Of a stretch of 64,000 bases of DNA, positions 5,721 to 29,519 are shown piece by piece. The first letter of the stretch is position 1. Each line of letters begins with the position of its first letter. Position numbers and translations under genes: made by a program. The DNA is from a plasmid, in the sequence record NZ_CP031103.1; one strand, 5' to 3'. A model generated the notes under the pieces. That model was not told the DNA's origin. It saw only the letters and a list, made by a program, of their open reading frames with translations, and did no database searches.

Positions 5721-5741
5721 GGGCTCCGCTTGGAATTCGGA

Positions 5742-7067: not shown

Positions 7068-7078
7068 AATATCCTACG

Positions 7079-10063
7079 CTAAGCCTGTTTTTTGTACAGG
7101 CTGCTATCCACTGAGCGTAATGTGCGGTATTTACCCTGCCCCAGCTTGAGGTTTGTTCGCCAGACGTAATCCCCGCTCAGATTTATGTGCTCCCATCCCA
7201 GTGGGGACAAATGCGCAATAAGTTGTTCATTTAGTGGGAGTCCTTTTCGCTTCAGAGAATCTATGGCTCTTTCCATATATACCGTATTCCACAGTGAGAT
7301 CGCCGCAGTCAGCAATGTCAGACCGCTGGCCCGGTAGCTTTGATTTTCCAGTCCCCGATCTCTGATTTCCCCCAGTCGGTGCATAAAGACAGCTCGCGCC
7401 AGGGCATTGCGGGCCTCACCTTTATTCAACCCTGCCTGTACCCGGCGGCGCAGTGAAGGATCCCGGAACCAGTCCAGCATAAATAATGACCTTTCGATGC
7501 GGCCAATCTCCCTCAGTGCCTTTGCCAGACCATTCTGTTTCGGGTAGCTGGCCAGCTTTTTCATCATCAGTGATGCCGTTACCGTTCCCTGCTTTATAGA
7601 ACTTGCCAGACGCAGTACCTCATGCCAGTGGGTTTCAATTTCCTTCAGACTCAGTCTGGTTGAGGATATGATTGACTGAAGCCCCGGATACAACTCAGCT
7701 TTCCCATGAATAAACAAGCGCTTGTCATGAAGATCCCGGATCCTTGGCGCAAAAGCGAATCCAAGCAGATGCATTAGCGCGAATACATGCTCAGTGAAGC
7801 CTGCTGTGTCGGTGTAATGCTCTGTAATTTCGAGATCGGTTTCGTGGTACAGCAGGCCATCAAGCACGTGTGTTGAGTCCCGCACGCGGCTGATTACTTT
7901 GATGTAAAACGGGCTGTATTGGTCCGAAATATGCGTATAAATCTGCACCCCTGGCTCCTGGCCGTATTTCAGATTGACCTGACCCGCATAACGCCCATGA
8001 CTCCCTACCCGAAAGTTCTGTCCGTCAGATGATGACGTTGTTCCATCGCCCCAGAATGCCGACAGAGGTCGCTTTTTCTGAGCATTGACCAACTCGGCCA
8101 GCGCGGCTGAATAAGTTTCATCCCTGATGTACCAGGCCTGAATGCCCTCAAGTGACGATTTTGTTGTTCCCGGACAGGATTCGGCCATTTTTGTCAGCCC
8201 AAGGTTGATGCCATCGGTCAGGATGGTGGTCAGTAACAACTTTCTGTCTTTAGGTCTGACGTGATTATTTTTGAGGTGGGTGAAATGGCGGGTAAAACCC
8301 GTCCAGCTATCCACTTCATCCAGCATTTCAGTAATTTTAGGATGAGGCAGCATGCCATACACCAGATCACCAAAAGGGGTTGCTGCTGAAGGGACACTGT
8401 TATCCAGCGGGGTAATTTTGACGCCTTTATCCGATATATCAACATCGGGCAAATCACCGGCCAGCGCCATCGCATTCACTTCCTCCAGGTGCGAAGCCAG
8501 AAGCGTCATACGGCTCCCAATGTATTCATGGCAATCGGTTGGAATAGCGAGGGGTAACTGGTTATCCCGGAGTGATTTTTCAAAATCGCCAGGCGGGATC
8601 AAATAATCATCGAAATTCCTGTAGCGACGAGATCCTTTCACCCAGATGTCACCTGAACGTAAAGCTCCCTTCAGCTCATTCAGCACACAAAATTCGTAAT
8701 ATTTTCGGTCAATGCCGTTGGACGTGATCACCACCTTTCTCCAGCTTTCCGGGATAAACCCGGTTGGCGCAGAAGACGGTACTTTTCGGAGTTGCTTTCG
8801 ATACATCTCTCTGACGGTATCCAGCGCATAACTAAGCTGCATTGCGGCGGGGGCAGCACTGAACTGCAACGCGGACAGCATCCGGGGAGCGTATTTGCGC
8901 AGCGTGCTGTATTTGTCTGTGATCAGATGCAACGGGTCGAAGTTGTCCTTACGTGACAGGAACCGTGTCTCTTCAACGCTGTTGATGAATTCCTGCCAGG
9001 GAAGGACGTCTTCTATTGCGGCCCAGGGATCTTCGCCAGATTCTCTGGCGTTAAGTAATGCCTGTCCGACGGTAACGTATTGCTTCAGCTTACTCTGAAT
9101 CAGTTTTCCCGTTTGCTGGAGTCGTTCGGCCTGCGTGCGTTTTGCCCTGCTGAACAGACTGCCCAAAATACGCTCATGCAGATCAATAACTTCGTCAGTC
9201 AGCGTGGCCCTGGCTTCCGATACGATACAAACCAGAGAGGCATAGCGGCGAACATCCGTGAATTTTGCCAAATCCCGGCTACTCATTTTCCTGCCTTCGC
9301 GTGCGAGTTTCAGGAGGCGGTTCTGGTGAACGGAAAGCGCAATACCGTCAGGCAATGCCAGTGACTCTATAGCATTTAACCGGTCGATATGTTGCAGGAC
9401 ATTTTTGCCATTAATTTTTCCCGGAGACTGAAGTAGCCAGGCCAGCCGTGAAGGTTGTTCGCCCTCAGAGATCAGCAGGCGATCCAGCGCAGCTTTTTGC
9501 CCCGGTTCAAGCTGTGCGGTCAGCGCAGAAAAAACCGCCCTGTCGGCAAGCGTAGTTGCTTCGGCAAGGGTTCGTTCGATGACCTCAACAGAGGGAAAAA
9601 TCACCTTATTATTGTGGAGCCATGAGAGCATTTCCTCTGCAAGTAGAAAACCTCTGTCTGTCCGCATGGCGTGGGGGTAAAGGTGGCGTATGCAGCTTTT
9701 TTGCAGTGCCCGATTGAACGGGCATAATTCCAGGTAGCGATAAAGTTCTGCCAGGTGTTCCCAACGGGTGACCTCTCTTGATGCATACTCGGTCCACAAA
9801 TCAGACTGAAGTTTCAAATGCATCGCCAGTCTGGAGACAACGCCATCGTGAGGTGAAATACTTTTGTCAGGGGGAAATCCCGGTCCCCGCAAGTAGCAGA
9901 GTAAAACAGCAAAGCCGAGGCGATTCGCTGGCCTGCGGTGTTTATTAATAAGCGCGAGGTCATGTTCACTCAAAAAACACATGCGGGTCAGAAGAACATC
10001 ATCATCCGGCACAACCAACAAGCGTTCTTTTTCTTCACTGCTGAGTATTTGTCTCCGTGGCAT
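7079..10063 (-). CDS. tnpA: Tn3-family transposase TnpA (about 994 aa; start at MPRRQILSS)
   Basis: Homology to second tnpA at 53792-56764 and Tn3-family conserved C-terminal region; stop codon lies within terminal IR. Confidence 0.9.
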   Translation of the reverse strand: MPRRQILSSEEKERLLVVPDDDVLLTRMCFLSEHDLALINKHRRPANRLGFAVLLCYLRGPGFPPDKSISPHDGVVSRLAMHLKLQSDLWTEYASREVTRWEHLAELYRYLELCPFNRALQKSCIRHLYPHAMRTDRGFLLAEEMLSWLHNNKVIFPSVEVIERTLAEATTLADRAVFSALTAQLEPGQKAALDRLLISEGEQPSRLAWLLQSPGKINGKNVLQHIDRLNAIESLALPDGIALSVHQNRLLKLAREGRKMSSRDLAKFTDVRRYASLVCIVSEARATLTDEVIDLHERILGSLFSRAKRTQAERLQQTGKLIQSKLKQYVTVGQALLNARESGEDPWAAIEDVLPWQEFINSVEETRFLSRKDNFDPLHLITDKYSTLRKYAPRMLSALQFSAAPAAMQLSYALDTVREMYRKQLRKVPSSAPTGFIPESWRKVVITSNGIDRKYYEFCVLNELKGALRSGDIWVKGSRRYRNFDDYLIPPGDFEKSLRDNQLPLAIPTDCHEYIGSRMTLLASHLEEVNAMALAGDLPDVDISDKGVKITPLDNSVPSAATPFGDLVYGMLPHPKITEMLDEVDSWTGFTRHFTHLKNNHVRPKDRKLLLTTILTDGINLGLTKMAESCPGTTKSSLEGIQAWYIRDETYSAALAELVNAQKKRPLSAFWGDGTTSSSDGQNFRVGSHGRYAGQVNLKYGQEPGVQIYTHISDQYSPFYIKVISRVRDSTHVLDGLLYHETDLEITEHYTDTAGFTEHVFALMHLLGFAFAPRIRDLHDKRLFIHGKAELYPGLQSIISSTRLSLKEIETHWHEVLRLASSIKQGTVTASLMMKKLASYPKQNGLAKALREIGRIERSLFMLDWFRDPSLRRRVQAGLNKGEARNALARAVFMHRLGEIRDRGLENQSYRASGLTLLTAAISLWNTVYMERAIDSLKRKGLPLNEQLIAHLSPLGWEHINLSGDYVWRTNLKLGQGKYRTLRSVDSSLYKKQA

Positions 10064-10221
10064 AAATGCTTCCTCTGCACATAGTTCATTAAAGTTATCA
10101 TTTGCACTGACCGAAACCGGTCGGTTTCGTACGCCTCGCAAACAATATGTCCGAAAGTCAGCGAAATTTGTTTCGTACATACGTTATAATTCGGACATCC
10201 ATTTCGTACGGAAAGTTTCCT
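10064..10221. promoter_or_regulatory. res site / divergent tnpA-tnpR promoter region with repeated TTTCGTAC(G) motifs
   Basis: Intergenic between divergent tnpA and serine resolvase; repeated tttcgtac motifs and palindromes seen. Confidence 0.5.
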
Positions 10222-10800
10222 ATGTCACGAGTTTTTGCTTACTGCCGGGTTTCGACTCTTGAGCAAACCACCGAGAATCAGCGAAGGGAAATTGAAGCGG
10301 CGGGTTTTGCCATCAGACCCCAGCGGCTGATTGAGGAACATATAAGTGGTTCGGTTGCTGCCAGCGAACGACCAGGGTTCATCCGGTTGCTTGATCGTAT
10401 GGAAAGCGGTGACGTATTGATTGTCACCAAACTTGACCGACTCGGCCGTAATGCGATGGATATCCGAAAAACAGTTGAACAACTGGCTACTTTAGATATC
10501 CGTGTTCATTGTCTCGCTCTCGGAGGTGTGGATTTAACCAGCCCGGCCGGAAAAATGACTATGCAGGTGATTTCAGCTGTGGCTGAGTTTGAGAGGGATC
10601 TGCTGATTGAACGCACACATTCAGGGATTTCTCGGGCAAGATCAGCCGGGAAACGCTTCGGTCGTCCGCCCATCCTGAGCGAGGAGCAAAAAAAAATAGT
10701 GTCAGAGCGCCTTAATTCCGGGGCCAGTATCAGTGCGGTTGCCAGAGAATTTAATACCACCCGGCAAACCATACTCCGGGTAAAAGCAGGACAGCAATAA
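10222..10800 (+). CDS. tnpR: serine recombinase / resolvase TnpR
   Basis: YCRVST catalytic serine motif near N-terminus, C-terminal HTH. Confidence 0.9.
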
Positions 10801-10900
10801 TACTGAATGTGAATAAATCCCATAACTGGCCAGGCCGTTGAAACTGTTCTTGAAGTAAACATCCGGAAAGCATGAAACATCATTCTGTCCACAAGGAACA

Positions 10901-10950
10901 GTGGCTATTATAATCGAATTTCGATAACGAAATTCGATTATAATAGCCAC
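10901..10950. repeat. near-perfect 50-bp palindrome (23-bp arms gtggctattataatcgaatttcg, 4-bp spacer) 26 bp upstream of chrA
   Basis: Seen in sequence. Confidence 0.8.
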
Positions 10951-10975
10951 TAAAACCAGCAATCAGGATCTGACC

Positions 10976-12181
10976 ATGAACGATACTGCCAGGAATGATC
11001 ACAGCCCCTGGGCTGTCTTTCTGATTTTCTTCCGACTTGGCCTGACATCCTTCGGCGGCCCAATTGCCCATCTGGGTTACTTCCGCGATGAGTTTGTGAC
11101 GCGACGGCAGTGGTTGACCGAGCGCAGCTATGCAGATTTGGTCGCTCTGTGCCAGTTCCTTCCGGGACCAGCAAGCAGTCAGGTTGGTATAGCGCTCGGG
11201 CTGTCCAGGGCCGGTTATACCGGGGCGCTGGCAGCATGGGCCGGCTTCACGCTACCGTCAGCAGTTGCACTGATCCTGTTTGCACTGGGGATGACCGGTT
11301 ACGGGGATGTGATGCCCTCTGGTGTATTGCATGGGCTGAAGGTGGTAGCCGTTGCGGTGGTCGCGCAAGCTGTATGGGGCATGGCCCGAAATCTTTGCCC
11401 GGATATACCGCGTATTACTGTCATGGCAGTGGCAACCTGCTTTGTGCTTCTTGTGCCATCGGCCTGGGGACAGGTGGGAGTGATCATCACTGCGGCTGTC
11501 ACTGGCATGTTACTGTTCAAACCTCAGCAGGCGACGGTACATGATCCACTGCCCGTTTCAATACGGCGTCGCGTCGGATTGTTCTGGCTCACGCTGTTCT
11601 TTGTGCTACTGACAGGGTTACCATTGCTGACGGCGATATTCCCAAATCCGACGCTGTTAATGGTAGAAACTTTCTACCGGACCGGATCACTGGTTTTTGG
11701 TGGCGGGCATGTCGTGCTGCCATTGCTGCAAACTGAAGTCGTTCCTTCTGGTTGGGTCAGCAATGATACATTCCTGGCTGGCTACGGCGCTGCCCAGGCC
11801 GTTCCTGGACCGTTGTTCACTTTTGCAGCCTTTCTCGGGGCTTCGATGAACCAGGTGCCTTCTGGCTGGCTGGGTGGTCTGGTTTGTCTGCTGGCAATTT
11901 TCGCACCGTCCTTCCTTCTGATTGTGGGAGCATTGCCGTTCTGGGAAAGTCTGCGCCGCAATATCCGCACACAAGCAGCGTTGCAGGGTATTAATGCAGC
12001 CGTAGTTGGCCTTCTGCTGGCTGCTCTCTATCAACCAGTATGGACGAGCGCAGTTCTCGCTCCGCAAGATTTCGGCCTTGCCCTTGTGGCACTGGTCGCT
12101 CTGATGTTCTGGAAACTGCCGCCGTGGCTGGTCGTAATGAGTTGCGGTGTTGCGGGTTGGTTGTTGAGTTTAGCACTGTGA
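10976..12181 (+). CDS. chrA: chromate efflux transporter ChrA
   Basis: CHR family two-domain membrane protein, typical N-terminus FFRLGLTSFGGP. Confidence 0.9.
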   Translation: MNDTARNDHSPWAVFLIFFRLGLTSFGGPIAHLGYFRDEFVTRRQWLTERSYADLVALCQFLPGPASSQVGIALGLSRAGYTGALAAWAGFTLPSAVALILFALGMTGYGDVMPSGVLHGLKVVAVAVVAQAVWGMARNLCPDIPRITVMAVATCFVLLVPSAWGQVGVIITAAVTGMLLFKPQQATVHDPLPVSIRRRVGLFWLTLFFVLLTGLPLLTAIFPNPTLLMVETFYRTGSLVFGGGHVVLPLLQTEVVPSGWVSNDTFLAGYGAAQAVPGPLFTFAAFLGASMNQVPSGWLGGLVCLLAIFAPSFLLIVGALPFWESLRRNIRTQAALQGINAAVVGLLLAALYQPVWTSAVLAPQDFGLALVALVALMFWKLPPWLVVMSCGVAGWLLSLAL

Positions 12182-12191
12182 GGTTCCGGGC

Positions 12192-12497
12192 GTGACCGAC
12201 AAAGATCTTTACGGCGGGATGATCCGTTTGCACATCCTGCATCATGCAGCCAAAGAACCCGTCTTTGGTCTGGGCATCATTGAGGAATTGCGACACCACG
12301 GTTATCAACTCAGCCCGGGTACCCTGTATCCGATGCTGCACGGTATGGAAAAGAAGGGGTATCTCACTTCACGACATGTTCAGGCCGGTCGACGAAGCAG
12401 GCGAGTATATGAAATCACCGGACAAGGGAACATAGCGCTAACGGACGCCAGAAACAGGGTGAAAGAGCTGTTCGGTGAACTTGTTGAAGGCAAATGA
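12192..12497 (+). CDS. PadR-family transcriptional regulator
   Basis: PadR winged-helix signature (GYxLSPGTLYPxLxxME). Confidence 0.8.
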   Translation: MTDKDLYGGMIRLHILHHAAKEPVFGLGIIEELRHHGYQLSPGTLYPMLHGMEKKGYLTSRHVQAGRRSRRVYEITGQGNIALTDARNRVKELFGELVEGK

Positions 12498-12620
12498 TAT
12501 GCCTATGGTTTTAGTCTGCCGTCTTCTGAAAACGACAGACACATGTAAGATTATCCGCTGCCTGGCAGAAGGAGACTTTGTGAAAACGCTCATGGTGTGT
12601 ATTTATACGATCAGAAGGCG

Positions 12621-13319
12621 TTATATTTTTTCCTGATTGACGCGGGACGAAAGTTCCTGATGACTCTCTTTTCGTTCGCTGTAGCGATCTGCAAGGTAGC
12701 TGGTTTGTCCCCTGAGCAGCAACGTAATTTTAAACAACTCCTCTGCGACATCTACGATACGGTCGTACCATGAGGACGGCTTCATCCTTCCGTTCTCATC
12801 AAATTCCTGCCAGGCTTTCGCCACCGAGGACTGGTTGGGAATTGTGAACATCCGCATCCAGCGGCCCAGAATGCGCATCTGGTTCACGGCATTGAAAGAC
12901 TGTGAACCGCCGCAAACCTGCATCACTGCAAGAGTCTTGCCCTGCGAAGGACGAACCGCGCCTTCACTCAACGGTATCCAGTCGATCTGCGCCTTCATCA
13001 CCGCGCTCATAGCCCCGTGCCGTTCCGGCGAGCTCCACACCATCCCGTCACACCATCTGACCAGCCCGCGTAGCTCGGAGACTTTAGGGTGCGTATCCGG
13101 GGCATCATCCGGCAGGGGTAAACCGGAGGGGTTAAAGAATTTCACCTCCGCGCCCATCGCCGTCAGCAGGCGACCTGCTTCCTCCGCGGCAAAGCGACTG
13201 TAGGAGCGCTCCCTTACTGAGCCATACAGGATCAGAATCCGTGGGGGCTCCTGCAGGTGCAGACGTTCAGCGATATGTTGATCAAAACAGTCAGTATTCA
13301 GGGCTGGAAATTGTTCCAT
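12621..13319 (-). CDS. arsH: ArsH NADPH-dependent FMN reductase
   Basis: Sequence family recognition; divergent from arsR as usual. Confidence 0.85.
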
Positions 13320-13404
13320 TTTTCTCCTCCGGAGAGAACAGATGATTTCAAATTTAACACATATGATTTAACATATGTGTATTCTAAAGTGAACGGAGTG
13401 AAAA

Positions 13405-13725
13405 ATGCTACAACCTGTTCAGCTTTTCAAAATCCTGTCGGATGAAACACGACTAGCCATCGTCATGCTTCTCCGGGAGTCCGGAGAATTGTGCGTCTGC
13501 GATATCTGCGTTGCTACCTCCGAATCGCAGCCCAAAATCTCCCGACATATGGCTATCCTTCGCGAGGCTGATCTGGTTCTTGACCGTCGGGAAGGCAAAT
13601 GGATCCACTATCGTCTGTCACCCCATATTCCGGCGTGGGCAGCAGAGACAATCACGACGACCTGGCAGTGTCTGCGCGAGGATGTACGTGAATGGCTGGA
13701 CAAATCAGCCTGCACCTCCTGCTGA
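13405..13725 (+). CDS. arsR: ArsR arsenite-responsive repressor
   Basis: ELCVCDL metal-binding motif, HTH. Confidence 0.85.
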
Positions 13726-13769
13726 GGCAGGAAAACATATTTACAAAATCATATATGATGGGGTATGAG

Positions 13770-15059
13770 ATGCTTTTGGCAGGGAGTATATTTTTACTGA
13801 CGCTGGTACTGGTGATCTGGCAACCCAGAGGCCTGAGTATTGGCTGGAGCGCGAGTATCGGGGCAGTGCTGGCGCTGGGAACCGGTGTCATCCATACCGC
13901 TGATATTCCCGTTGTCTGGAATATCGTCTGGAACGCGACAGCGGCATTTATTGCGGTCATCATCATCAGCCTGCTGCTCGATGAGTCCGGCTTCTTTGAA
14001 TGGGCCGCACTGCACGTCTCCCGCTGGGGTAACGGACGTGGCCGCCTGCTGTTCACCTGGATAGTCTTGCTCGGTGCCGCTGTTGCTGCTTTGTTCGCCA
14101 ATGATGGCGCCGCGCTGATCCTGACGCCGATTGTGATTGCGATGCTGCTCGCACTGGGGTTCAGCCAGGGCACGACACTGGCCTTTGTCATGGCTGCAGG
14201 ATTTATTGCAGATACGGCCAGCCTGCCACTCATTGTTTCTAACCTGGTGAATATCGTCTCGGCGGACTTCTTCGATCTGGGCTTTACACAGTACGCCTCC
14301 GTTATGATCCCCGTGGATGCGGCAGCGATTGCGGCCACGCTGATCATGCTGCATCTCTTCTTCCGCAGGGATATTCCGGCAACATATGACGTTTCGCTAC
14401 TGAAGACGCCTGCCAGTGTGATAAAGGATCCGGCAACGTTCAGGGCGGGCTGGATTGTCCTGTTATTGCTGCTTGTCGGTTTCTTCGTTCTGGAGCCGCT
14501 GGGGATCCCTGTCAGCGCGATAGCAGCTGCTGGCGCAGCAGTACTGTTTATCGTGGCGAAAAGAGGTCATGGCATCAACACAGGGAAAGTCCTGCGCAGT
14601 GCGCCATGGCAGATCGTGATTTTTTCGCTGGGCATGTACCTGGTGGTCTATGGCCTGCGCAATGCCGGGCTCACGGAGTATCTGTCTGGTGTACTGAACC
14701 TGCTGGCAGAAAAGGGGTTATGGGCAGCAACGTTCGGCACCGGTTTCCTGACCGCATTCCTGTCGTCGGTGATGAACAATATGCCGACGGTGCTGATTGG
14801 TGCGCTGTCGATTGACGGGAGTACGGCGACTGGCGTCGTCAAAGAGGCAATGATTTATGCCAACGTGATTGGCTGCGATTTAGGCCCGAAAATCACCCCG
14901 ATTGGCAGTCTGGCAACCCTGCTTTGGCTGCATGTGCTTGCCCAGAAAAATATAACGATCACCTGGGGTTATTACTTCCGCACCGGCATTATCATGACTC
15001 TGCCCGTGCTGTTTGTCACTCTGGCCGCGCTGGCGTTGCGGCTTTCCATCACTTTGTAA
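13770..15059 (+). CDS. arsB: ArsB arsenite efflux pump (429 aa; start [10 protein letters not shown])
   Basis: Family recognition. Confidence 0.9.
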
Positions 15060-15071
15060 TGAGATAAAGAT

Positions 15072-15500
15072 ATGAGCAACATTACTATCTATCACAACCC
15101 GGCCTGCGGTACTTCACGCAACACGCTGGAGATGATCCGTAACAGCGGTAACGAACCGACCATTATTTATTATCTCGATACGCCACCGACCCGTGATGAG
15201 CTGATTAAACTTATTTCAGATATGGGAATTACGGTGCGTGCATTGCTGCGTAAGAATGTTGAGCCTTATGAACACCTGGGCCTTGATGAAGAGAAATTCA
15301 GTGATGAGCAGTTGATTGATTTTATGCTTCAACATCCGATCCTGATTAATCGGCCGGTAGTCGTTACGCCGCTGGGAACGCGCCTGTGTCGCCCGTCGGA
15401 AATTGTGCTGGAAATTCTTGCGGATAAGCAAAAAGGGGCTTTCACTAAAGAAGATGGCGAGAAAGTAGTGGATAGTCGCGGTAAACGAATCATTAAGTAA
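15072..15500 (+). CDS. arsC: ArsC arsenate reductase (glutaredoxin-dependent)
   Basis: N-terminal HNPACGTSR motif. Confidence 0.9.
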   Translation: MSNITIYHNPACGTSRNTLEMIRNSGNEPTIIYYLDTPPTRDELIKLISDMGITVRALLRKNVEPYEHLGLDEEKFSDEQLIDFMLQHPILINRPVVVTPLGTRLCRPSEIVLEILADKQKGAFTKEDGEKVVDSRGKRIIK

Positions 15501-15542
15501 AACTGTCAGACACCCCTGCCCGAAGGCAGGGGGAACTTATCG

Positions 15543-15686
15543 TTAATGGCAATGACCACCCTCATGTGAGCCATGAACATAATCGTGAATATACCCATTA
15601 TGGGTATATTCACCATGATATGCCCACGCGGCCATGGTTGTGCCTCCCAGCAGAACCACGAGCATAACTGCAATGACTTTCTTCAT
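15543..15686 (-). CDS. 47-aa secreted His-rich peptide (MKKVIAVMLVVLLGGTTMAAWAYHGEYTHNGYIHDYVHGSHEGGHCH), not in ORF track
   Basis: Strong RBS aaggagatata 7 nt upstream of ATG; signal peptide then 8 His + 1 Cys in 25 residues; immediately downstream of P1B-ATPase. Confidence 0.4.
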   Translation of the reverse strand: MKKVIAVMLVVLLGGTTMAAWAYHGEYTHNGYIHDYVHGSHEGGHCH

Positions 15687-15723
15687 TATATCTCCTTGAA
15701 AATGAATAATTTTACTGCTTACC

Positions 15724-18366
15724 TTACCGTCTGAAACGTAAAAGTCTCAGACTGTTAAGAATGACCAGCACAGCGGCTCCCGTATCGCTCAGCACCGCCA
15801 TCCAGAGCGTTAACCAGCCCGGGAAGATCAGCGTCAGCGCGACGACCTTGACCAGTAACGAGAACACAATGTTCTGGCGGATGATCCGGGCCGTCAGTTT
15901 GCTCAGGGCAAAGGCGTGAGGCAGCTGTTCCAGACGGTCTGACATCAGCACCACATCGGCGGTTTCGATGGCTGAATCCGTGCCCGCTCCGCCCATCGCA
16001 ATACCGATATCGGCGGCAGCCAGCGCCGGCGCATCGTTGATGCCATCGCCCACCATGGCGATACGGATCCCTTTCTGTTGAAACGCCTCAATGGCCGCCA
16101 CCTTATCTTCCGGCAGCAAGTCGGCCCGCCAGGACTCTACGCCCGCCTGAGCGGCAATGGTACGGGCGGTACCGGCATTATCACCCGTCAGCATCAGGGT
16201 ATGTGTCAGGCCATCCGCGTGAAGCTCCTTCAGGGCATCAACGGTCGTTTTACGCAGCGCATCCGCAATGGCGAACAGACCATAAACGCCCATATTCGTT
16301 CCGAGCAGTACCACCGTCGCACCGCTCTCCTTGAGCAAATCAATCTGGCCCTGGATCTCTGGAGCAATCGCAATCTCGCGGAACAGCTTTTCATTACCTG
16401 CTAACCATGTTTCGCCCCCGACGACGGCGCGGGCACCCTGGCCCGGCAGGGTCTGGTACTCGCTGGCCTCTGCTGCCTGCGCATTATGCTGACGCGCATA
16501 ATCACTGATCGCCGTGGCCAGCGGGTGCGTTGAGTGGGACTCAACCGCCAGGGCGATAGCTAACAGGTTCTCGCTGCTTGCCCCGGAAAACGTCTGCCAC
16601 TGCGTGACCCGGGGTTTGCCCTCCGTCAGGGTACCGGTTTTATCGAAAGCCAGGCCCTGAATGGCACCCAGCTTTTCAAGGGTTACGCCCCCCTTAACCA
16701 GGATGCCGTGACGGGCTGCGTTACCAATTGCCGAGACGATGGCCACCGGCGTAGAAATCACCAGTGCACAAGGACAGGCCACAACCAGCAGTTCCAGCGC
16801 GCGGTAAAACCACTCCGCAAAACTTCCCCAGCCCACCACTGGCGGCACGATGCTGACCACCAGTGCCAGAATGAACACTATCGGGGTGTAAATCGCAGAG
16901 AATTTTTCCACGAAACTCTGGGTAGGCGATTTACGGTTCTGCGCCTCTTCTACCATATGGATGATGCGTGACAGGGCAGTCTCTGTAGAGGCTCTCGTCA
17001 CCTCAACTTCCAGCACGCCGTTATGGTTAATACTTCCGGCATACACGTCATCCCCTGGTGCCTTATCAACCGGAATAGACTCGCCGGTGATCGGTGCCTG
17101 GTTAACGCCGGATTCCCCCTTAATCACCCTACCGTCAAGAGGTAAACGATCGGCGGGTTTGATCAGCATGGTGGTGCCTTTGCGCACGTCGCCAACGGGG
17201 ACACTCACCCACTGATTATCCTTGCGGATTGTGGCTGTTTCAGGTGCCAGCGCCATCAGGCTTCTGATGGAGTTGCGGGTTTTTTCAATACTTCTGGCCT
17301 GCAGCGTGGCCCCCAGAGAGAAGAGGAACACGACGCTGGCCCCTTCAAGCCACTCGCCGATAATGGCCGCGCCAATGGCGGCTGCGGACATGAGCACGTT
17401 CATGTCCAGCGATTTGCTGAGTATGGCGTACCAGGCGCTGCGGGCAGGCCTGATGCCCCCGGCAACGATGGAAAGCGCATAGCAGAGCGTGGACAGATAG
17501 TCAGGGAAGGAGAGCCAGGAAAGAACAAACCCGGTCACCAGCGCCACGCCCGATACCACCACGTTCAGCGTTCCGGTACCGCTGCGTTTTTTGCTACTGA
17601 TGCCCGCGCCAGTGGGTTGTGCCTTGTAGCCGGCTTTAGCCACTTCACTCTGAATGACATCCTGCGACAGGGTATGACTAATCGCCATCTTGCCGGTGGA
17701 GAAGTTGACGGATACCTGACTGACGCCCGGCAGTTTACCGAGGTGTTTCTCGATGGTTGCCGCGCATGCGCCACAGTCCATCCCTTCGATAAAGTACTCT
17801 TCTGTGCCTGAAGCGGTCATGGCATCAAGTGTAAAACCGAGTTTCATCACCGCCTTTTCGATTTCCGGCTGGCTGGCGGCTTCACTGGCATGAACCTGCA
17901 TTTTCCCGGCGCTGAAATTGACGTTGCACTCCGCTACCCCGTTAAGCTGCCGTACACGTCGCACGATAGTTTCCGCACATGAAGGGCAGTCCATACCGCC
18001 AACGAGATAGTCGAGCGTCCGGGTACCTGCGATATCCGCTCGCGCGTTCAGCGGGGCGGTTTCAACGGGATCGGCCCCGCAGCAGGGATCCTGACACGCC
18101 GACGGCGTTAGGGGCTTCATTACGGTTGCGGAGGTAAGTGTAAAGGGTTTAACGGCGGCTTCTCCTTTGAAGGTCAGTTCGGCTTTATCTGCTTTCTGAA
18201 GGGCCGGTGTACAGCAGCTCTCATGACAGGTTTCTGCCTGGACCGGTAAGGGTTCTTTTTCAGCAACTGGTTTATTGGGCGTTACCGGAGAAAAGCCCTT
18301 GAAGGTGCGCGTGTTGTCTGGCCGGGAGCAGGAACCCGTTGCGCAGCATGATGATTTTTCGCTCAT
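15724..18366 (-). CDS. P1B-type heavy-metal (Zn/Cd/Pb-type) translocating ATPase with Cys-rich N-terminus and two CxxC metal-binding domains
   Basis: GMDCPSCA and GMDCGACA HMA motifs, CPC transmembrane motif, DKTGTLT phosphorylation motif. Confidence 0.85.
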   Translation of the reverse strand: MSEKSSCCATGSCSRPDNTRTFKGFSPVTPNKPVAEKEPLPVQAETCHESCCTPALQKADKAELTFKGEAAVKPFTLTSATVMKPLTPSACQDPCCGADPVETAPLNARADIAGTRTLDYLVGGMDCPSCAETIVRRVRQLNGVAECNVNFSAGKMQVHASEAASQPEIEKAVMKLGFTLDAMTASGTEEYFIEGMDCGACAATIEKHLGKLPGVSQVSVNFSTGKMAISHTLSQDVIQSEVAKAGYKAQPTGAGISSKKRSGTGTLNVVVSGVALVTGFVLSWLSFPDYLSTLCYALSIVAGGIRPARSAWYAILSKSLDMNVLMSAAAIGAAIIGEWLEGASVVFLFSLGATLQARSIEKTRNSIRSLMALAPETATIRKDNQWVSVPVGDVRKGTTMLIKPADRLPLDGRVIKGESGVNQAPITGESIPVDKAPGDDVYAGSINHNGVLEVEVTRASTETALSRIIHMVEEAQNRKSPTQSFVEKFSAIYTPIVFILALVVSIVPPVVGWGSFAEWFYRALELLVVACPCALVISTPVAIVSAIGNAARHGILVKGGVTLEKLGAIQGLAFDKTGTLTEGKPRVTQWQTFSGASSENLLAIALAVESHSTHPLATAISDYARQHNAQAAEASEYQTLPGQGARAVVGGETWLAGNEKLFREIAIAPEIQGQIDLLKESGATVVLLGTNMGVYGLFAIADALRKTTVDALKELHADGLTHTLMLTGDNAGTARTIAAQAGVESWRADLLPEDKVAAIEAFQQKGIRIAMVGDGINDAPALAAADIGIAMGGAGTDSAIETADVVLMSDRLEQLPHAFALSKLTARIIRQNIVFSLLVKVVALTLIFPGWLTLWMAVLSDTGAAVLVILNSLRLLRFRR

Positions 18367-18716
18367 TGGGCAGGATCTCCAAGCAGGCGACTGTTCATAC
18401 CGCAGCAGTGAACCTCTTCGCCCACTTCAACCATCAGGGTATCAAGCATGACCAGAAAGGCTTCCATATGCGGGCCTGACAGGCCGTAGTAGCAAAACTT
18501 CCCTTCCTGTCGTTTGGTTATCATCCCGCATCCCTTAAGGCAGGCGAGATGCTGGGAAACACCGGACTGAGATGCACCGATCTCATTCACGATATCGGAT
18601 ACCGTTTTCTCTCCGCTACGCAGCGAAATGAGGATACTCAGACGGGTCTTTTCCGATACACCGCGCAGGAATTTGATTTTGTCGTCAAGGGTTGCAGCCA
18701 CTACACACTCCAACAT
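18363..18716 (-). CDS. ArsR/SmtB-family metalloregulator (CadC/ZntR-like)
   Basis: HTH plus Cys-containing metal sites; translationally coupled upstream of ATPase. Confidence 0.8.
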   Translation of the reverse strand: MLECVVAATLDDKIKFLRGVSEKTRLSILISLRSGEKTVSDIVNEIGASQSGVSQHLACLKGCGMITKRQEGKFCYYGLSGPHMEAFLVMLDTLMVEVGEEVHCCGMNSRLLGDPAQ

Positions 18717-18914
18717 ATTAATATTCGCTAATGCGCAATATATTAATCCACGCTAATATAATGTCAATTGGCCCGTGCGATTTTGATATAGATAAAAGGT
18801 ATATCAATGGGTTGCATAAAAAACGCTCCCGTTAATGTCGCGGGTCATTGTCTGCACAGAGCGCATCAGGGTCATCTGAAGGCTCATTGTTAAACGGTCA
18901 ATAAGGATTATTTT

Positions 18915-19550
18915 ATGAAGAAAGGAGTTATCGTGGGTATCTTTCTGCTTGTGCTGGGTGTGGCGGCGTTCAGTCTCTGGTTCACCACGAAACCAGCAGA
19001 AGGTAACCGGGACAGTTTTGTGGCCAGCCATTCCCCGGTGCTGGGGGTCATTAATGCACCGGTAACCATTGTCGAATTTTTTGATCCGGCCTGTGAGGCA
19101 TGTGCGGCTATGTCACCCTATGTTAAAGAGACCCTGGCCACTCATCCGGAGGGCGTCAGACTGGTTCTGCGTTATGCCCCTTTCCACGGTGACGTTTCCG
19201 TCGAGGCTATCGAAATTCTTGAAGCGGCCCGTGAACAACGGCTTTTTGAACGTGTACTGACCGCGTTTTTCCGCAATCATCCATCCTGGGCGGGTCACGG
19301 TTTTTCACCCGAGAAAGGTAAGGCTACCCTCTGGAAAATTGCTCTGGCGTCAGGACTTAATGAGCAGCGGGCCAGAGCTTACATCGCCGGAAATAAAACG
19401 AAGAAAGTGATTGCGGAGGATCTGAAACAGATCAAGGAGCTTAATATCCAGGGCACGCCAACATTCTATGTGAATGGTAAAAAACTGATCGACCTGGGCC
19501 CCGAGCAGCTGGATCAGATGGTGTCAGCGGCGCTGAAAGAGAGCAAATAA
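18915..19550 (+). CDS. DsbA-like thiol:disulfide oxidoreductase (signal-anchored, CEAC active site)
   Basis: Thioredoxin fold CxxC motif FDPACEAC. Confidence 0.75.
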   Translation: MKKGVIVGIFLLVLGVAAFSLWFTTKPAEGNRDSFVASHSPVLGVINAPVTIVEFFDPACEACAAMSPYVKETLATHPEGVRLVLRYAPFHGDVSVEAIEILEAAREQRLFERVLTAFFRNHPSWAGHGFSPEKGKATLWKIALASGLNEQRARAYIAGNKTKKVIAEDLKQIKELNIQGTPTFYVNGKKLIDLGPEQLDQMVSAALKESK

Positions 19551-19574
19551 TCTCGTTTATTGCCCGAGGTATCC

Positions 19575-19612
19575 GAACAACAAGTCGCCTGAAAGGCGAC
19601 TTGTTGTGTTTA
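19575..19612 (+). terminator. rho-independent terminator (aacaacaagtcgcc tgaaa ggcgacttgttgtg + T-rich)
   Basis: Hairpin seen in sequence. Confidence 0.7.
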
Positions 19613-19781
19613 ACATTGAAAAGTATGTTGGCCACATGAAATGATGGTTAGTCGCGTTGACAGGAATTAACGTAGCCTGCCCATACCTTAAACCTGTGTT
19701 TTCGCCTTAGGCTTAATGTCCGCAGTTCACTCATAGTTGCCCATCATGCCAGCTCAAAAAACAGGCTTAACGTAGGATATT

Positions 19782-21109
19782 TAATGAGATGGTCACTCCC
19801 TCCTTCCCGGTACTATGCTGAGGACAGGCTTTCATTCGGAGAACTATCATGGAAAACATTGCGCTCATTGGTATCGATCTGGGTAAAAACTCTTTCCATA
19901 TTCATTGCCAGGATCGTCGCGGGAAGGCTGTTTACCGTAAAAAATTTACCCGGCCAAAGTTGATCGAATTTTTGGCGACATGCCCCGCTACAACCATCGC
20001 AATGGAAGCCTGTGGCGGTTCTCACTTTATGGCACGCAAGTTGGAAGAGTTGGGGCATTCCCCAAAGCTGATATCACCACAATTTGTCCGCCCGTTCGTT
20101 AAAAGCAATAAAAACGACTTTGTCGACGCCGAAGCTATTTGTGAAGCTGCATCGCGTCCGTCTATGCGTTTTGTGCAGCCCAGAACGGAATCTCAGCAGG
20201 CAATGCGGGCTCTGCATCGTGTCCGTGAATCCCTGGTTCAGGATAAGGTAAAAACAACCAATCAAATGCATGCTTTTCTGCTGGAATTTGGCATTAGCGT
20301 TCCCCGAGGAGCTGCCGTTATTAGCCGACTGAGTACCATTCTTGAGGATAATAGTTTGCCTCTTTACCTCAGCCAGTTATTGCTGAAATTACAACAGCAT
20401 TATCACTATCTTGTTGAGCAGATTAAAGATTTGGAATCCCAGTTGAAACGAAAGTTGGACGAAGATGAGGTTGGACAGCGCTTGCTGAGCATTCCCTGCG
20501 TCGGAACACTGACAGCGAGTACTATTTCAACTGAGATTGGCGACGGGAAGCAGTACGCCAGCAGCCGTGACTTTGCGGCGGCAACAGGGCTTGTACCTCG
20601 GCAGTACAGCACGGGAGGTAGGACGACATTGCTGGGAATTAGTAAGCGAGGTAATAAAAAGATCCGAACTTTGTTGGTTCAATGTGCCAGGGTATTCATA
20701 CAAAAACTGGAACACCAGTCTGGCAAATTGGCCGATTGGGTCAGGGATTTACTGTGCCGGAAAAGCAACTTTGTCGTCACTTGTGCTCTGGCAAACAAGC
20801 TGGCCAGAATAGCCTGGGCCCTAACGGCACGACAGCAAACTTATGTAGCATAACGGCAGAAATACACCGGTTTAAAGAATTACTGATCTGGTTTTGCGAA
20901 TACTGATATTGATGATACTAACGGCCCACCGGCCTGTTGAGGAACCTGTAAAACGGAAAGGCTCATTGAAGCCGTATATTTTCTGGAGGTTCATCAGGCG
21001 CGGAACTCATCAAGGCGCGGGAATAAAATCCCATTCAGACGCCGGATAGATTCAAGCAAGCCAACTTGTCGTCAAAATCGGTGTTGCAAAAACGGGAGTG
21101 ACCATAGAT
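19782..21109 (+). mobile_element. IS5075/IS4321-like copy 2 (intact 334-aa transposase 19849-20853) inserted in right IR of metal transposon
   Basis: Identical insertion point relative to IR as copies 1 and 3. Confidence 0.9.
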
Positions 21110-21135
21110 TCCGTTTTCCAAGCGGACCCCTGGAT

Positions 21136-21266: not shown

Positions 21267-21704
21267 GCGAAACCTGTTACGCCGGTTGTAGAGGAAGTAC
21301 CGGTGCAACACGCACCTCAGACCGTGCAGACGCCACCAACGGAAACGAAGCAAACTCCTGCGCACAGACCAGCCCTGCCGAAAATGGGCCAGTAACCGAT
21401 CCGCCAGCATAAATAAGGCTCCTTTTGGGGCCTTATTTTTGAAATTTAGAGGGGAAAACTTCACTTTTGACACCGATGGAGCATAGGTTTGACGCGCTTT
21501 TTGACACAAAAGCTGAAGAAATCAGCAGTCGATCAAATTTTCATTTTTTTTTCTGAAATATTGACATGACATCCAAGCCTTACGGTACGGGCACTTGCGA
21601 TTTTTTATTGCTTGACAACCTCAATTTAACCTCAAAATCAACTCTTGTTCAGGAAATAAACTCCTTTAGAATAATCACTGTCAGTCATAGAGTTAGAAAG
21701 ACCA

Positions 21705-21734
21705 GACGCAAAAAACCCGACTGGTAAGGTCGGG
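21705..21734 (-). terminator. minus-strand rho-independent terminator (cccgacc ttacca gtcggg + TTTTTTG)
   Basis: Seen in sequence; no protein gene ends here, so candidate antisense sRNA terminator. Confidence 0.45.
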
Positions 21735-22009
21735 TCTTTGCGGTTCCGGATGAGCTGGTAACTCAACCGGGGGGTACTCTCTTTAGCTGACAGGAAAAAT
21801 GATACGCGAATATTTTGGTCGCGGCAAACGACGTTTAGATACAAAACACACCAAAAGCCCTGGCTTTGTAGAACGGGTGGTACCGCGATACAAAGTGCTC
21901 TCATAGGTTGGAGTGCTCTCTTTAGCTGACACGTAAGAGAAAAAAACCGATGTAACAGGCCATTTGGAGTAGACGTCGGTGCTCTCCCTCCGCATCGTTG
22001 GAGGTACGT

Positions 22010-22105
22010 ATGATTAGTAAATTAATCATCGTTCTGAAAGGCCTGATCGTCGTTGCAAAACTGGCGCTCGAGCTTTTAGAACAAATCAGTAAGTTTTTTG
22101 ACTGA
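22010..22105 (+). CDS. 31-aa hydrophobic peptide MISKLIIVLKGLIVVAKLALELLEQISKFFD, DinQ/TisB-like type I toxin candidate
   Basis: GGAGG RBS 5 nt upstream; similarity of pattern to DinQ (MIDKAIIVLGALIALLELIRFLLQLLN); strong terminator follows. Confidence 0.5.
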   Translation: MISKLIIVLKGLIVVAKLALELLEQISKFFD

Positions 22106-22111
22106 TACGAA

Positions 22112-22142
22112 AACAAAAGGCGCCTTCGGGCGCCTTTCTTAT
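22112..22142. terminator. bidirectional rho-independent terminator (aaaaggcgcc ttcg ggcgcctttctt)
   Basis: GC hairpin with T-runs on both strands; ends the small ORF (+) and the 22146-22379 gene (-). Confidence 0.75.
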
Positions 22143-22145
22143 TGG

Positions 22146-22379
22146 TTAATGTGCCGGTTCCGGCGGGCTCTCCGCCTTTTTCAGCACGTCCTCCACCCGT
22201 CCACGATATTGCAGCAACAAGCCCAGCGTCGCGTCATCCAGCGCGATAGAGTCACCCGCATCGGTGCGTATCCAGACCTGGTAGCCGTCGAACCGGGCAT
22301 ACACTCCATCATGAATGTAGGTTTCCTGCGACGGATCAAACGGCGTACTCCACGGGAAGAGCGGTATTTCCTGTTCCAT
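22146..22379 (-). CDS. hypothetical protein (77 aa)
   Basis: ORF only. Confidence 0.4.
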   Translation of the reverse strand: MEQEIPLFPWSTPFDPSQETYIHDGVYARFDGYQVWIRTDAGDSIALDDATLGLLLQYRGRVEDVLKKAESPPEPAH

Positions 22380-22388
22380 CTTCTCTCC

Positions 22389-22889
22389 TCAATGACTCTT
22401 CGACAGGTGCGTAATGCGCATCTGCATGACCATCACACCCTGCTGGCTAATCTCCTGGTGTAGGCGTGTCCAAGCGTAGAACTCCTTCACCAGCGCCGCA
22501 GAGACGGCAAGATCGGCCTTCCCGCCCCGTGCATGAAACTCACTGGCGATACGCTGGCACATAGCTTCACCTTCCTCGTGCGGGAACGGTGTGGCGGCGA
22601 GCAGCTGATCGCGTTCCTCATCAAGCACGTCGTAGATATGGCGCTTCTCAAAGGTGACGCTATCCCCGTCGCGCAGGCCATGTCTGACCGTATGCAACAG
22701 ATCGTTGTTGATACGTCCCGTTACGGTGTCACCTTCGACAGCCGTCACCGCCACCCAGAAACGCTCCCGATCTACGCAGACTTTCACGCTGACCCGACCA
22801 CAACCGAATCCAGTTCGGTCTGGCCAGGTGCGGCGAAGGTATCCGGGTAAAGGCGCTCCATACGTTGTGCATCTTCAAACGTAGCCATT
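22389..22889 (-). CDS. hypothetical protein; 132-aa ORF possibly continuous with an upstream 34-codon ORF (ATG 22889) via -1 frameshift
   Basis: ORF track plus manual translation of 22788-22889. Confidence 0.35.
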
Positions 22890-22894
22890 GGCGC

Positions 22895-23284
22895 TTAATC
22901 CAGTACCAGTTGGGTGACGCGGCAGTTATACAGCGCCGCCAGCTTCTCTAGCGTGGTCTTCTGGGGTTTCTTGCGCTTCTCCATATTCGAGACACCGGCT
23001 TGTGTGATGCCCAGCTCTTTGGCCACGTCTTCCTGCGACAGCCCCCGGAACAGGCGCCAGGCAACGTGCATGGGTACGCCCTCCTTCCGGTGCAGCTTGA
23101 CGACCTCGTGAGGGTACGTCTCAACGTCGCTTTCGCCCGCCTCAACGGGCACGGATTCATACAGCTCGTCCAGATCGCTTTGTGCCACCAGCCGGTTAAA
23201 CAGGCTGATAGGGATAATGGCGCTGATCCGGTTGCCGTTCTCGTCAGTCACATATTGTACTTTGCTCATGATTACTCTCGTCAT
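22895..23284 (-). CDS. HigA-like antitoxin with C-terminal XRE-type HTH
   Basis: HTH LSQEDVAKELGITQAGVSNME; downstream of RelE-like toxin. Confidence 0.65.
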   Translation of the reverse strand: MTRVIMSKVQYVTDENGNRISAIIPISLFNRLVAQSDLDELYESVPVEAGESDVETYPHEVVKLHRKEGVPMHVAWRLFRGLSQEDVAKELGITQAGVSNMEKRKKPQKTTLEKLAALYNCRVTQLVLD

Positions 23285-23349: not shown

Positions 23350-23682
23350 TTAGCGTTTTTTGTAGGTTGTTGTGGTTCGTTTCAGCACTTCCAGCACCTC
23401 GATAATCACGGGTTCCCCTTTGATTACCGTCCAGAGAACCCGGTAGTTGCCTACTGCTAACCGCCACCGCCCTTTCTTGTCATCCGTCAGCTTCTTCACG
23501 TTCAGGTGTGGAATGTTCGGCCACTTTTGCAGTTCTTCCACCCCCTCCTCTATCGCGTCACCGTCAGCGGTGGGGAGCTTTAGAAGTTGTTTGGTGGCTT
23601 TACCCGTCCAGACAATTTCAGGCATTTGCCTCTTCATGTTTTTAAAGAACATATCCCTCGTGGGATGAGTCCAATATAACAT
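23350..23682 (-). CDS. RelE/ParE-superfamily (HigB-like) toxin
   Basis: C-terminal YRVLWTVIKGEPVIIEVLEVLKR typical of RelE/ParE fold. Confidence 0.65.
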   Translation of the reverse strand: MLYWTHPTRDMFFKNMKRQMPEIVWTGKATKQLLKLPTADGDAIEEGVEELQKWPNIPHLNVKKLTDDKKGRWRLAVGNYRVLWTVIKGEPVIIEVLEVLKRTTTTYKKR

Positions 23683-28875: not shown

Positions 28876-29519
28876 GCCTCTGCGGGCCTACACGGGGCAC
28901 TCATCACTGGCCGCACGGTTGATGAAGTAAGTCCATTCACTTCCTCTGCAGCGCTCCCTTCCATCGTCTCGCCGTCATTGAATATAAGCGACTTCCCCAT
29001 TACCCAGGCGAACTGGGTACGGCCTCCAGACAGCACCAACAACACCTGCCCATTAACGAGCTGGCTGATGGGCTCAATCACCGCAAAGCCCGTTGAGGTA
29101 TCCAGTATTTGGGTGTCGATGCCAACGCCGCAGATCTTCTCTGGAGTGAGCCTGCTCTCTACGTAGTCGTTAGCGGGTGATGCGAAGGCCATCAGAGCAC
29201 CCTCCCCATAGTACGCAGCATCCAGAGTTTATTCTGGCTGTCATCGGGTGTCTTATCGACGAAAAACGTCTGGTTTTGCTCTATCCAGTTGTTGGCGTCT
29301 TGCCAGTTGAAGTGCCAGTGAACTTTCGCCAGCTGGCTGATGAAATCGTCAGTGCGCACACACTGAAAACCCTTCGGATTGTTATGTATTGCTGCGACAA
29401 ATGCGCTATGAATTTCGTATCGGCGGACCATGATCTACGCTCCTTTTCACTGTTTTTATATACAGTATTTTTTATGAAAGTGTAGATCAAGGTGGTTTAC
29501 AAGATAGGCTGCTCTGTTC

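Follow-up and report, generated by a model that had tools for sequence, protein, structure and literature searches.

The 64,000-nt stretch of plasmid DNA analysed here (sequence record NZ_CP031103.1, referred to as the window, with positions counted from its first letter) very probably carries, at 21706-22137, a type I toxin–antitoxin module of the DinQ/Dql–AgrB family, situated in the maintenance region of the plasmid backbone beside parM. This assignment is made from sequence. By analogy with its relatives, the module most likely works as a plasmid addiction module. The copy is a divergent, unannotated member of a family that is already known and experimentally validated. The dinQ-agrAB locus was described in 2013 (PMC3567139), and in 2016 genes resembling dinQ, named dql, were reported from the chromosomes and plasmids of enterobacteria, together with a four-element model of the mRNA leader (PMC5066626). 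In 2025, two groups demonstrated the toxicity of DqlB, its neutralisation by agrB via a box in the leader, and the stabilisation of pOXA-48 and an IncX3 plasmid by a dqlB/agrB module (PMC12365149, PMC12317039); these properties have been established only for the dqlB/agrB modules of pOXA-48 and pOXA-484. RefSeq now annotates dqlB on such plasmids. The module in the window escapes annotation because its toxin and its small RNA (sRNA) both score under standard thresholds. Nevertheless, three independent homology signals, from the sRNA, the leader and the peptide, reproduce the order and spacing of the family. What goes beyond the ordinary in this copy is confined to its regulation, namely the lack of a 5' lock, overlapping divergent promoters, a tighter hairpin over the Shine–Dalgarno (SD) sequence and a short antisense seed.

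The antitoxin sRNA and its target box

The predicted sRNA is encoded on the minus strand. The seed at its 5' end is single-stranded and precedes a central hairpin (CCGG-U-UGAGUU/AGCUCA-U-CCGG), after which come a terminator hairpin and U6. A permissive Rfam covariance scan, the check that the original prediction had proposed, matched AgrB (RF02891) on the minus strand at 21708-21790, with all of the model (1-84) covered. The score of 38.6 bits is 1.4 bits under the gathering score of 40, with E-values of 2e-4 locally and 0.0066 for the whole window, and this was the sole Rfam match at E <= 0.05 in the entire 64 kb. For calibration, the sRNAs at annotated dinQ/dqlB loci score between 37.4 and 108 bits on the same model (for example 47.8 bits for IncX3 and 37.4 bits for one IncI1 copy), which places the window sRNA at family level. 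A leave-one-out covariance model, R1, built from 18 family sRNAs at annotated dinQ/dqlB loci with the window sRNA excluded, recovered the same segment at 66.9 bits (E 1e-13), the next match in the window reaching 13.6 bits. The structure of R1 is backed by covariation within the family, 90% of cells being paired as against 32-58% with the partners slid. Further, the sRNA folds at -33.3 kcal/mol (z = -5.1), none of 200 shuffles being as stable, and the fold has the form expected of an AgrB-type sRNA, with the 5' tail left free ahead of the central hairpin and the terminator. The divergent antisense RNA had been proposed to resemble AgrB or IstR; the resemblance to AgrB is borne out, while IstR gave no match. 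The Rfam scan of the window points to a single sRNA gene at the locus.

The opposite-facing rho-independent terminator of the original prediction was correctly placed to within a few bases. Its hairpin forms in the RNA fold and coincides with the terminator helix of the AgrB models. A simple terminator scan did not list it, probably because A-U pairs prolong the stem into the U tract. Upstream of the sRNA, a promoter predicts a start at about 21790-21792 and lies in register with the TTGCA(A/T)...TA(n)(n)AT found upstream of 14 other family sRNAs, those of IncX3 and IncX1 reading TTGCAT-17-TATCAT. As an aside on sRNA copy number, Citrobacter werkmanii NBRC 105721 (locus L047, 1504-4447) has eight AgrB-like sRNA matches within 8 kb, far above other loci, and the IncI1 plasmid pHUSEC41-1 (L084) and an IncX1 plasmid (L086) each contain two tandem dqlB/agrB units.

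Two 18-bp direct repeats, noted earlier at 21775 and 21914, agree at 17 of 18 positions (21775-21792 and 21914-21931). Their exact core is 16 nt long, and the match extends to 23/27 over 21771-21797 and 21910-21936; by our own estimate, the chance expectation of a 16-nt exact repeat within 600 bp is about 4e-5. The repeats are the predicted antisense seed and its mRNA target. In the modelled duplex, sRNA nucleotides 1-19 pair continuously with mRNA 21913-21931 through 18 Watson–Crick pairs and one G.U, beyond which a 1-nt bulge is followed by two further G-C pairs. An over-extended duplex involving the whole sRNA (RNAduplex, -73.5 kcal/mol) was not used, as it ignores intramolecular structure. 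Since the second repeat lies in the toxin mRNA leader and not in the sRNA, the minus-strand transcript is expected to run from about 21792 to 21706, and not across 21705-21930 as originally envisaged.

The position and the specificity of the box both conform to the family, in which a divergent upstream sRNA has a 5' end complementary to a leader box about 90 nt before the start codon. In the window, the exact 16-nt core begins 94 nt upstream of the ATG. The 14 other family loci compared have an equivalent box between -83 and -98, and although its sequence varies from locus to locus, it always agrees with the 5' end of the sRNA of its own locus, where it is repeated. When sRNA seeds were set against leaders in a 10 x 10 matrix, the cognate duplex was the strongest in every row; that of the window reached -47.2 kcal/mol, as against -39.5 kcal/mol or weaker on the nine foreign leaders. 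The two boxes are 139 nt apart in the window, compared with 188-241 nt in other plasmid and chromosomal loci. A degenerate inverted copy of the sRNA/target box (12/15) was also seen at 21678-21692, just past the sRNA terminator, and may be due to chance.

The putative toxin peptide

The 31-residue open reading frame (ORF) and the GGAGG ribosome-binding site of the original prediction are both present, the latter 5 nt before the ATG, and the ORF is followed by the strong terminator foreseen, which proved to be bidirectional. The peptide bears the N-terminal motif of the family, MI-x-x-(L/A)-IIVL, shares its length and C-terminal D with DqlB, and has K4 in common with DinQ. It is identical to DqlB variants at 12-15 of 31 residues (39-48%), whereas the sampled DqlB variants are mostly more than 80% identical to one another. 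The NCBIfam model for DqlB (NF041473) aligns with its full length (1-31) at 15.3 bits, below the membership cut-off of 35; the model for DinQ (NF041472) gave no match, and Pfam has no model. A hidden Markov model (HMM) of DinQ and DqlB sequences, built without the window, placed the peptide at the top of 1837 six-frame segments of the window with an E-value of 6e-4, the next being 0.81.

AlphaFold2 returned a single helix over residues 2-30 with a predicted local distance difference test (pLDDT) score of 95.8, in keeping with the hydrophobic single-helix peptides of 27-31 residues that carry this motif. The charged residues at positions 10, 17, 21, 24, 28 and 31 follow the helical repeat, so the helix is amphipathic; its hydrophobic moment is 0.37, and that of TisB 0.35. 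The peptide had been described as DinQ/TisB-like. Its kinship with DinQ holds on the strength of the motif, the HMM and the leader alignment, but the comparison with TisB is one of analogy and involves no sequence relation. The peptide, which was compared here with DinQ and DqlB sequences, may fall in the DqlA group of PMC5066626.

The toxin mRNA

The 215 nt upstream of the ATG were aligned with those of eleven dinQ/dqlB loci from plasmids and chromosomes. The leader is alignable from about 21852 on and shares with the family the motifs AAAG(C/T)CCTGG, GGTGGT, GTGCTCT, GT(A/G)ACAGGC and GAGTA as well as the anti-SD/SD hairpin, the alignment continuing into the start of the ORF (ATGATT-N8-AATCATCGTTCT). 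The SD-sequestering hairpin is positionally homologous to the 3:4 hairpin of the dinQ 5' untranslated region. It is predicted in the full-length and in nearly all 5'-truncated transcripts (P(SD unpaired) <= 0.06), and with a local stability of -8.3 kcal/mol it is stronger than its counterparts in K-12 (-6.2) and IncX3 (-5.8). An alternative 2:3 pairing of GGUUGGAG (21906-13) with CUCCCUCC (21984-91) could form at -13.5 kcal/mol, with the SD never open at equilibrium for any 5' truncation. Pairing over a long range, between 21829-37 and 21970-78, was also predicted but is no more than suggestive, since 16 of 1000 shuffles do as well. At the other end of the transcript, the intrinsic terminator scores on both strands and is therefore common to the toxin mRNA and the convergent 77-residue ORF at 22146-22379(-).

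We infer a toxin promoter at 21787-21814, the only promoter-like site for the toxin, with a predicted mRNA start at about 21821. It overlaps the start and the promoter of the sRNA on the opposite strand, its -35 element falling within the six 5'-terminal bases of the sRNA gene and its -10 element inside the spacer of the sRNA promoter. The candidate is favoured mainly for the distances that it sets, +180 for the SD and +90 for the box, which agree with +184 and +88 in K-12 dinQ, values that our K-12 control reproduced.

No LexA box was obvious by eye in the original prediction, and a search bore this out, finding no CTG-N10-CAG in the locus and no CTGT-N8-ACAG with up to two mismatches across 21529-22588. 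Elsewhere, a perfect LexA-type palindrome, CTGTTTTTATATACAG, occurs at 29450-29465; the one other exact match to CTGT-N8-ACAG listed for the window is CTGTCAGAGCAGACAG (42605-42620).

Comparison with known systems

The plasmid dqlB/agrB modules used for comparison came from IncX3 (pNDM-5/pOXA-484), IncL (pOXA-48), IncI1, IncX1 and IncFIB plasmids, along with NF041473 and RF02891. Like them, the window has a 31-residue peptide with N-terminal MI..LIIVL and C-terminal D, and one divergent AgrB-like sRNA upstream with a promoter of the type TTGC..-17-TATCAT. In both, a copy of the sRNA 5' end stands in the leader some 90 nt ahead of the start codon, the SD is enclosed in a hairpin, the toxin gene has an intrinsic terminator, the locus is plasmid-borne and a LexA box is absent. 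With IncX3 and IncX1, the window further shares the sRNA hairpin variant GAGUUACCAGCUC. Unlike them, it has neither the TATAAT-GTTAGC promoter and 5' end nor the element 1 lock, its SD hairpin is stronger and its boxes are closer together. Its peptide is also more charged (3 K, 2 E, 1 K, 1 D) than DqlB (R10, E24, R27, D31), and its pairing of 19-21 bp is shorter than the 35 nt reported for pOXA-48.

The chromosomal dinQ-agrA/agrB locus of E. coli K-12, located between gor and arsR, has a homologous leader and sRNA architecture. The N-terminal MI-K-IIVL including K4 is common to both peptides, and the alternative 2:3 pairing is possible in K-12 as well (-16.9 kcal/mol). In contrast to the window, K-12 DinQ is 27 residues long and has a GTG start, and its gene has a LexA box (TACTGTATGATTATCCAGT), two sRNA genes (agrA and agrB), complementarity of 31/34 nt and an element 1:2 lock, with processing at +44 needed for translation (PMC5066626).

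The hok/sok system of plasmid R1 offers a functional parallel, in that post-segregational killing results from an unstable antisense RNA and a stable, locked toxin mRNA. It differs from the window in that Sok overlaps the hok/mok leader in cis, Hok has about 50 residues, activation proceeds by 3' trimming and the sequences are unrelated. In tisB/istR-1 of E. coli, a divergent trans-acting sRNA pairs with the 5' leader of the mRNA for a membrane-helix toxin of about 30 residues, TisB has a charged stripe on its helix, and the primary tisB transcript is translationally inert. The likeness to the window is again one of analogy, with no homology of peptide or RNA sequence and no LexA box in the window locus.

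Conservation and genomic context

The identical peptide is called on at least 24 public contigs, a count that comes from an exact-sequence look-up and is biased towards intact copies; no source that calls it gives it a name. It was found on one plasmid backbone only, beside parM, and its neighbours did not differ among the 10 places shown. In every copy whose neighbours are shown, the module lies between parM and a ParE/RelE–helix-turn-helix (HTH) pair, following parM and its downstream gene and preceding two small ORFs. Both small ORFs are present in the 10 peptide-bearing contigs shown, the 132-residue one with varying called length.

Thirteen copies fall into two haplotypes, with differences at 22002 and also at 21850-21858, 22143 and 22168; only four variable positions are within the locus, leaving the sRNA, its promoter and both boxes invariant. 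The variant A22002C, present in 5 of the 13 contigs including the Leclercia adecarboxylata plasmid pM17-63, changes the SD from GGAGG to GGCGG and breaks one pair of the SD hairpin without a compensating change at 21989. A comparison of the window with pM17-63 gave 4 differences in 21700-22142 as against 16 in 21383-21576.

Among plasmids (PLSDB), a tblastn search with the peptide returned one intact copy, two weak matches to DqlB and four remnants, all truncated, of a related gene; the same query found nothing in a phage collection. A phmmer search against 1.84 billion representatives identified only a one-residue variant, E21A, and no bridge to DqlB. A degenerate C-terminal codon pattern matched nothing in viral contigs, and in metagenomes it matched one identical contig and, by chance, one other. 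An N-terminal pattern run against 185,579 species genomes retrieved DinQ, DqlB and chance matches only, with no second copy of the subtype. As for the remnants, two-thirds of a related dql ORF, its 3' part (KGMIAVAELALELLEHIRQFIG*), persist together with the terminator on the Leclercia plasmid pP10164-3 (L004, 1501-1604) and on a Lelliottia amnigena plasmid (L006), and two further Leclercia plasmids carry a related remnant. The remnant is 86% identical to window 22037-22140 and is fused to arsB debris beside arsC; no sRNA or leader is left with these remnants.

Relative to pM17-63, about 15.4 kb of DNA are inserted in the window at 5726-21130. This insertion is a Tn3-family transposon that carries chromate, arsenic and heavy-metal genes as well as an IS110-family element, and it disrupts the region just downstream of parM. 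The 3' remainder of the interrupted backbone gene is located between the transposon end (about 21130) and the module. As read from this alignment, the module is part of the plasmid backbone and not of the insertion. The original prediction had set the locus between the transposon end and a higBA module. The remnant of the backbone gene intervenes on the transposon side, and the two small ORFs intervene before the ParE/RelE–HTH pair. The features of the locus and its surroundings are collected in Table 1.

Table 1. Predicted elements of the module and neighbouring genes in the window
Feature	Coordinates	Strand	Details and basis
AgrB-like antitoxin sRNA gene	21706..21792	-	about 87 nt; Rfam RF02891, leave-one-out covariance model and fold
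sRNA terminator	arms 21711-21721 / 21729-21739	-	U6 = plus-strand A run 21710-21715; fold and AgrB models
sRNA seed (upstream repeat copy)	21771..21792	-	first 19-21 nt of sRNA; repeat and duplex analysis
sRNA promoter	21799..21827	-	-35 TTGCCG (21827-21822), 17-nt spacer, -10 TATCAT (21804-21799); promoter scan
Candidate toxin promoter	21787..21814	+	-35 CTGACA (21787-21792), 16-nt spacer, -10 AATATT (21809-21814); promoter scan, 9/12
Toxin mRNA 5' untranslated leader	21821..22009	+	about 190 nt; alignment, 5' end predicted
Leader target box (downstream repeat copy)	21910..21931	+	includes GGAG of element 2; box comparison
SD-sequestering hairpin (elements 3:4)	21987..22004	+	CCUCCG / loop CAUCGU / UGGAGG; SD GGAGG 22000-22004
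Toxin ORF	22010..22105 including stop	+	31 residues, MISKLIIVLKGLIVVAKLALELLEQISKFFD; ATG 22010, TGA 22105
Toxin mRNA intrinsic terminator	22116..22137	both	9-10 bp stem, 6 G-C pairs, TTCG loop; terminator scan
Small ORFs, 77 and 132 residues	22146-22379 and 22389-22787	-	no Pfam/NCBIfam match
ParE/RelE-HTH pair	23350-23682 and 22895-23284	-	neighbours
Tn3-family TnpA	7079-10180	-
Serine recombinase	10147-10800
ChrA	10976-12181
ArsH	12621-13319	-
ArsB	13692-15059
Heavy-metal P-type ATPase	15724-18366	-
IS110-family transposase	19849-20853

Proposed mode of action and alternative explanations

In the proposed scheme, the plus strand would be transcribed into the mRNA for a membrane peptide of 31 residues that forms a single amphipathic helix. 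The leader of this mRNA would be about 190 nt long, with the ribosome-binding site buried in the SD hairpin. A separate promoter on the minus strand would drive the 87-nt sRNA, whose first 19-21 nt would pair with the leader box, including its GGAG segment; in dinQ, this segment and the SD compete for the anti-SD strand (PMC5066626). By analogy with dinQ/agrB and dqlB/agrB, the pairing would keep the SD hairpin closed and, in addition, make a double-stranded substrate for RNase III. As long as the plasmid is present, the presumably short-lived sRNA would be present too, and no toxin would be made. Upon plasmid loss, the mRNA would outlive the sRNA and the toxin would kill or arrest the cell, which amounts to post-segregational killing.

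Several points weigh against a functional DinQ/Dql–AgrB module. Both curated thresholds are missed (15.3 versus 35 bits in NCBIfam and 38.6 versus 40 bits in Rfam), and toxicity and expression at this locus are predictions. The canonical toxin promoter and 5' end of the family, TATAAT-N6-GTTAGCTCTG, are absent from the window alignment, and the sole candidate promoter for the toxin is a 9/12 consensus match that overlaps the sRNA promoter. The pairing box of 19-21 bp is short compared with the 31-35 nt of dinQ and pOXA-48. When the first 60 nt of the mRNA were paired with the box region and compared with 500 shuffles each, the window reached -12.7 kcal/mol and 471 of the shuffles did as well, in contrast to K-12 (-34.4 kcal/mol; 0/500) and IncX3 (-30.3 kcal/mol; 4/500). 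Because the pairing in the window is no better than that of shuffles, the element 1 (1:2) lock is taken to be missing; element 1 and the 5' region are the most variable part of the family (PMC5066626). Further, equilibrium folding opened the SD for no 5' truncation tested, while the K-12 control partly opens. The SD being closed in all truncations, the activation step is not visible. Finally, the GGCGG allele of the SD may mark an attenuated toxin in the 5 of 13 contigs that have it.

The same observations would suit a decaying or silenced Dql/AgrB relic, in which a deletion has taken the toxin promoter and about 45 nt of the leader start, so that the sRNA is still made while the toxin is untranscribed or untranslated and has no part in plasmid maintenance. 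The close spacing of the boxes, the missing canonical promoter and element 1, the SD that is closed in all predicted folds, the SD-weakening allele and the truncated remnants of a related gene on Leclercia and Lelliottia plasmids all agree with such decay. Nonetheless, we consider it unlikely. The ORF, SD hairpin, box, terminator and sRNA have all stayed intact, variation is lower in the locus than in its flank, and the peptide is identical on the contigs counted above in two haplotypes, with the caveat that an exact look-up favours intact copies. A plausible promoter, moreover, gives dinQ-like distances from +1 to the SD and the box. With a silent toxin, the box and the sRNA would be free to drift, and their match, kept over 19 bp, therefore counts against a relic.

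It is possible, though doubtful, that the differences in regulation reflect a third, undescribed branch of DinQ/Dql in which the 5' control by 'lock and processing' has been replaced. If so, the toxin and sRNA promoters would lie within the same 40 bp on opposite strands, and initiation by RNA polymerase at one of them could preclude initiation at the other. The sRNA would have direct access to the primary toxin transcript, whose SD would be kept shut by the stronger hairpin, and the more charged amphipathic peptide might act on the membrane in a manner unlike DinQ or DqlB.

Two other explanations carry very little weight. E. coli dinQ is LexA-regulated (PMC3567139), and the peptide is amphipathic with a hydrophobic moment near that of TisB, which could suggest an SOS-induced toxin of the chromosomal DinQ or TisB type that acts in stress and persistence and not in plasmid addiction. 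This is very improbable given the lack of a LexA box in or near the locus, the lack of any TisB/IstR sequence relation in Pfam, NCBIfam and Rfam scans, the location on a plasmid backbone beside parM, and the fact that its nearest relatives, plasmid DqlB modules, have proved to act as addiction systems. Least credible of all is a chance ORF beside unrelated repeats and terminators. The ORF does have only 31 codons, and short hydrophobic ORFs are common, but the three independent homology signals in family order and spacing have already refuted that idea, and the 16-nt exact core of the repeat also speaks against it. The DinQ/Dql–AgrB module thus remains the preferred reading.

Other features of the window

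Next to the module, at 21465-21680, is a TTGACA-rich non-coding stretch in which TTTTGACAC occurs at 21465 and 21499 and further TTGACA motifs continue to about 21620. The segment 21511-21678 is about 79% similar to unannotated plasmid DNA of Citrobacter, Enterobacter and Kosakonia. The stretch may be an array of binding sites tied to the partition genes. The minus strand at 38479-43368 encodes a Type ISP restriction-modification enzyme in the form of one polypeptide of 1629 residues, in which Mrr nuclease, helicase, N6 methylase and Type_ISP_C domains are combined.

Significance

Plasmid DinQ-like/AgrB modules have recently been recognised as major determinants of the stability of resistance plasmids, and they are often overlooked on account of their size. 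The module described here indicates that the family extends past what the NCBIfam and Rfam thresholds capture. Members that score under these thresholds are therefore missed by surveys that count plasmids "without a toxin-antitoxin system". The seed of the window sRNA is unlike the seeds at the nine dinQ/dqlB loci used for comparison, from which an absence of cross-talk with co-resident modules is predicted. With no 5' lock and with divergent promoters predicted to overlap, this copy would be a useful natural test case for deciding which elements of the dinQ regulatory model are indispensable. For its hosts, the module may help to retain a Leclercia-type plasmid that carries a 15-kb metal-resistance transposon.

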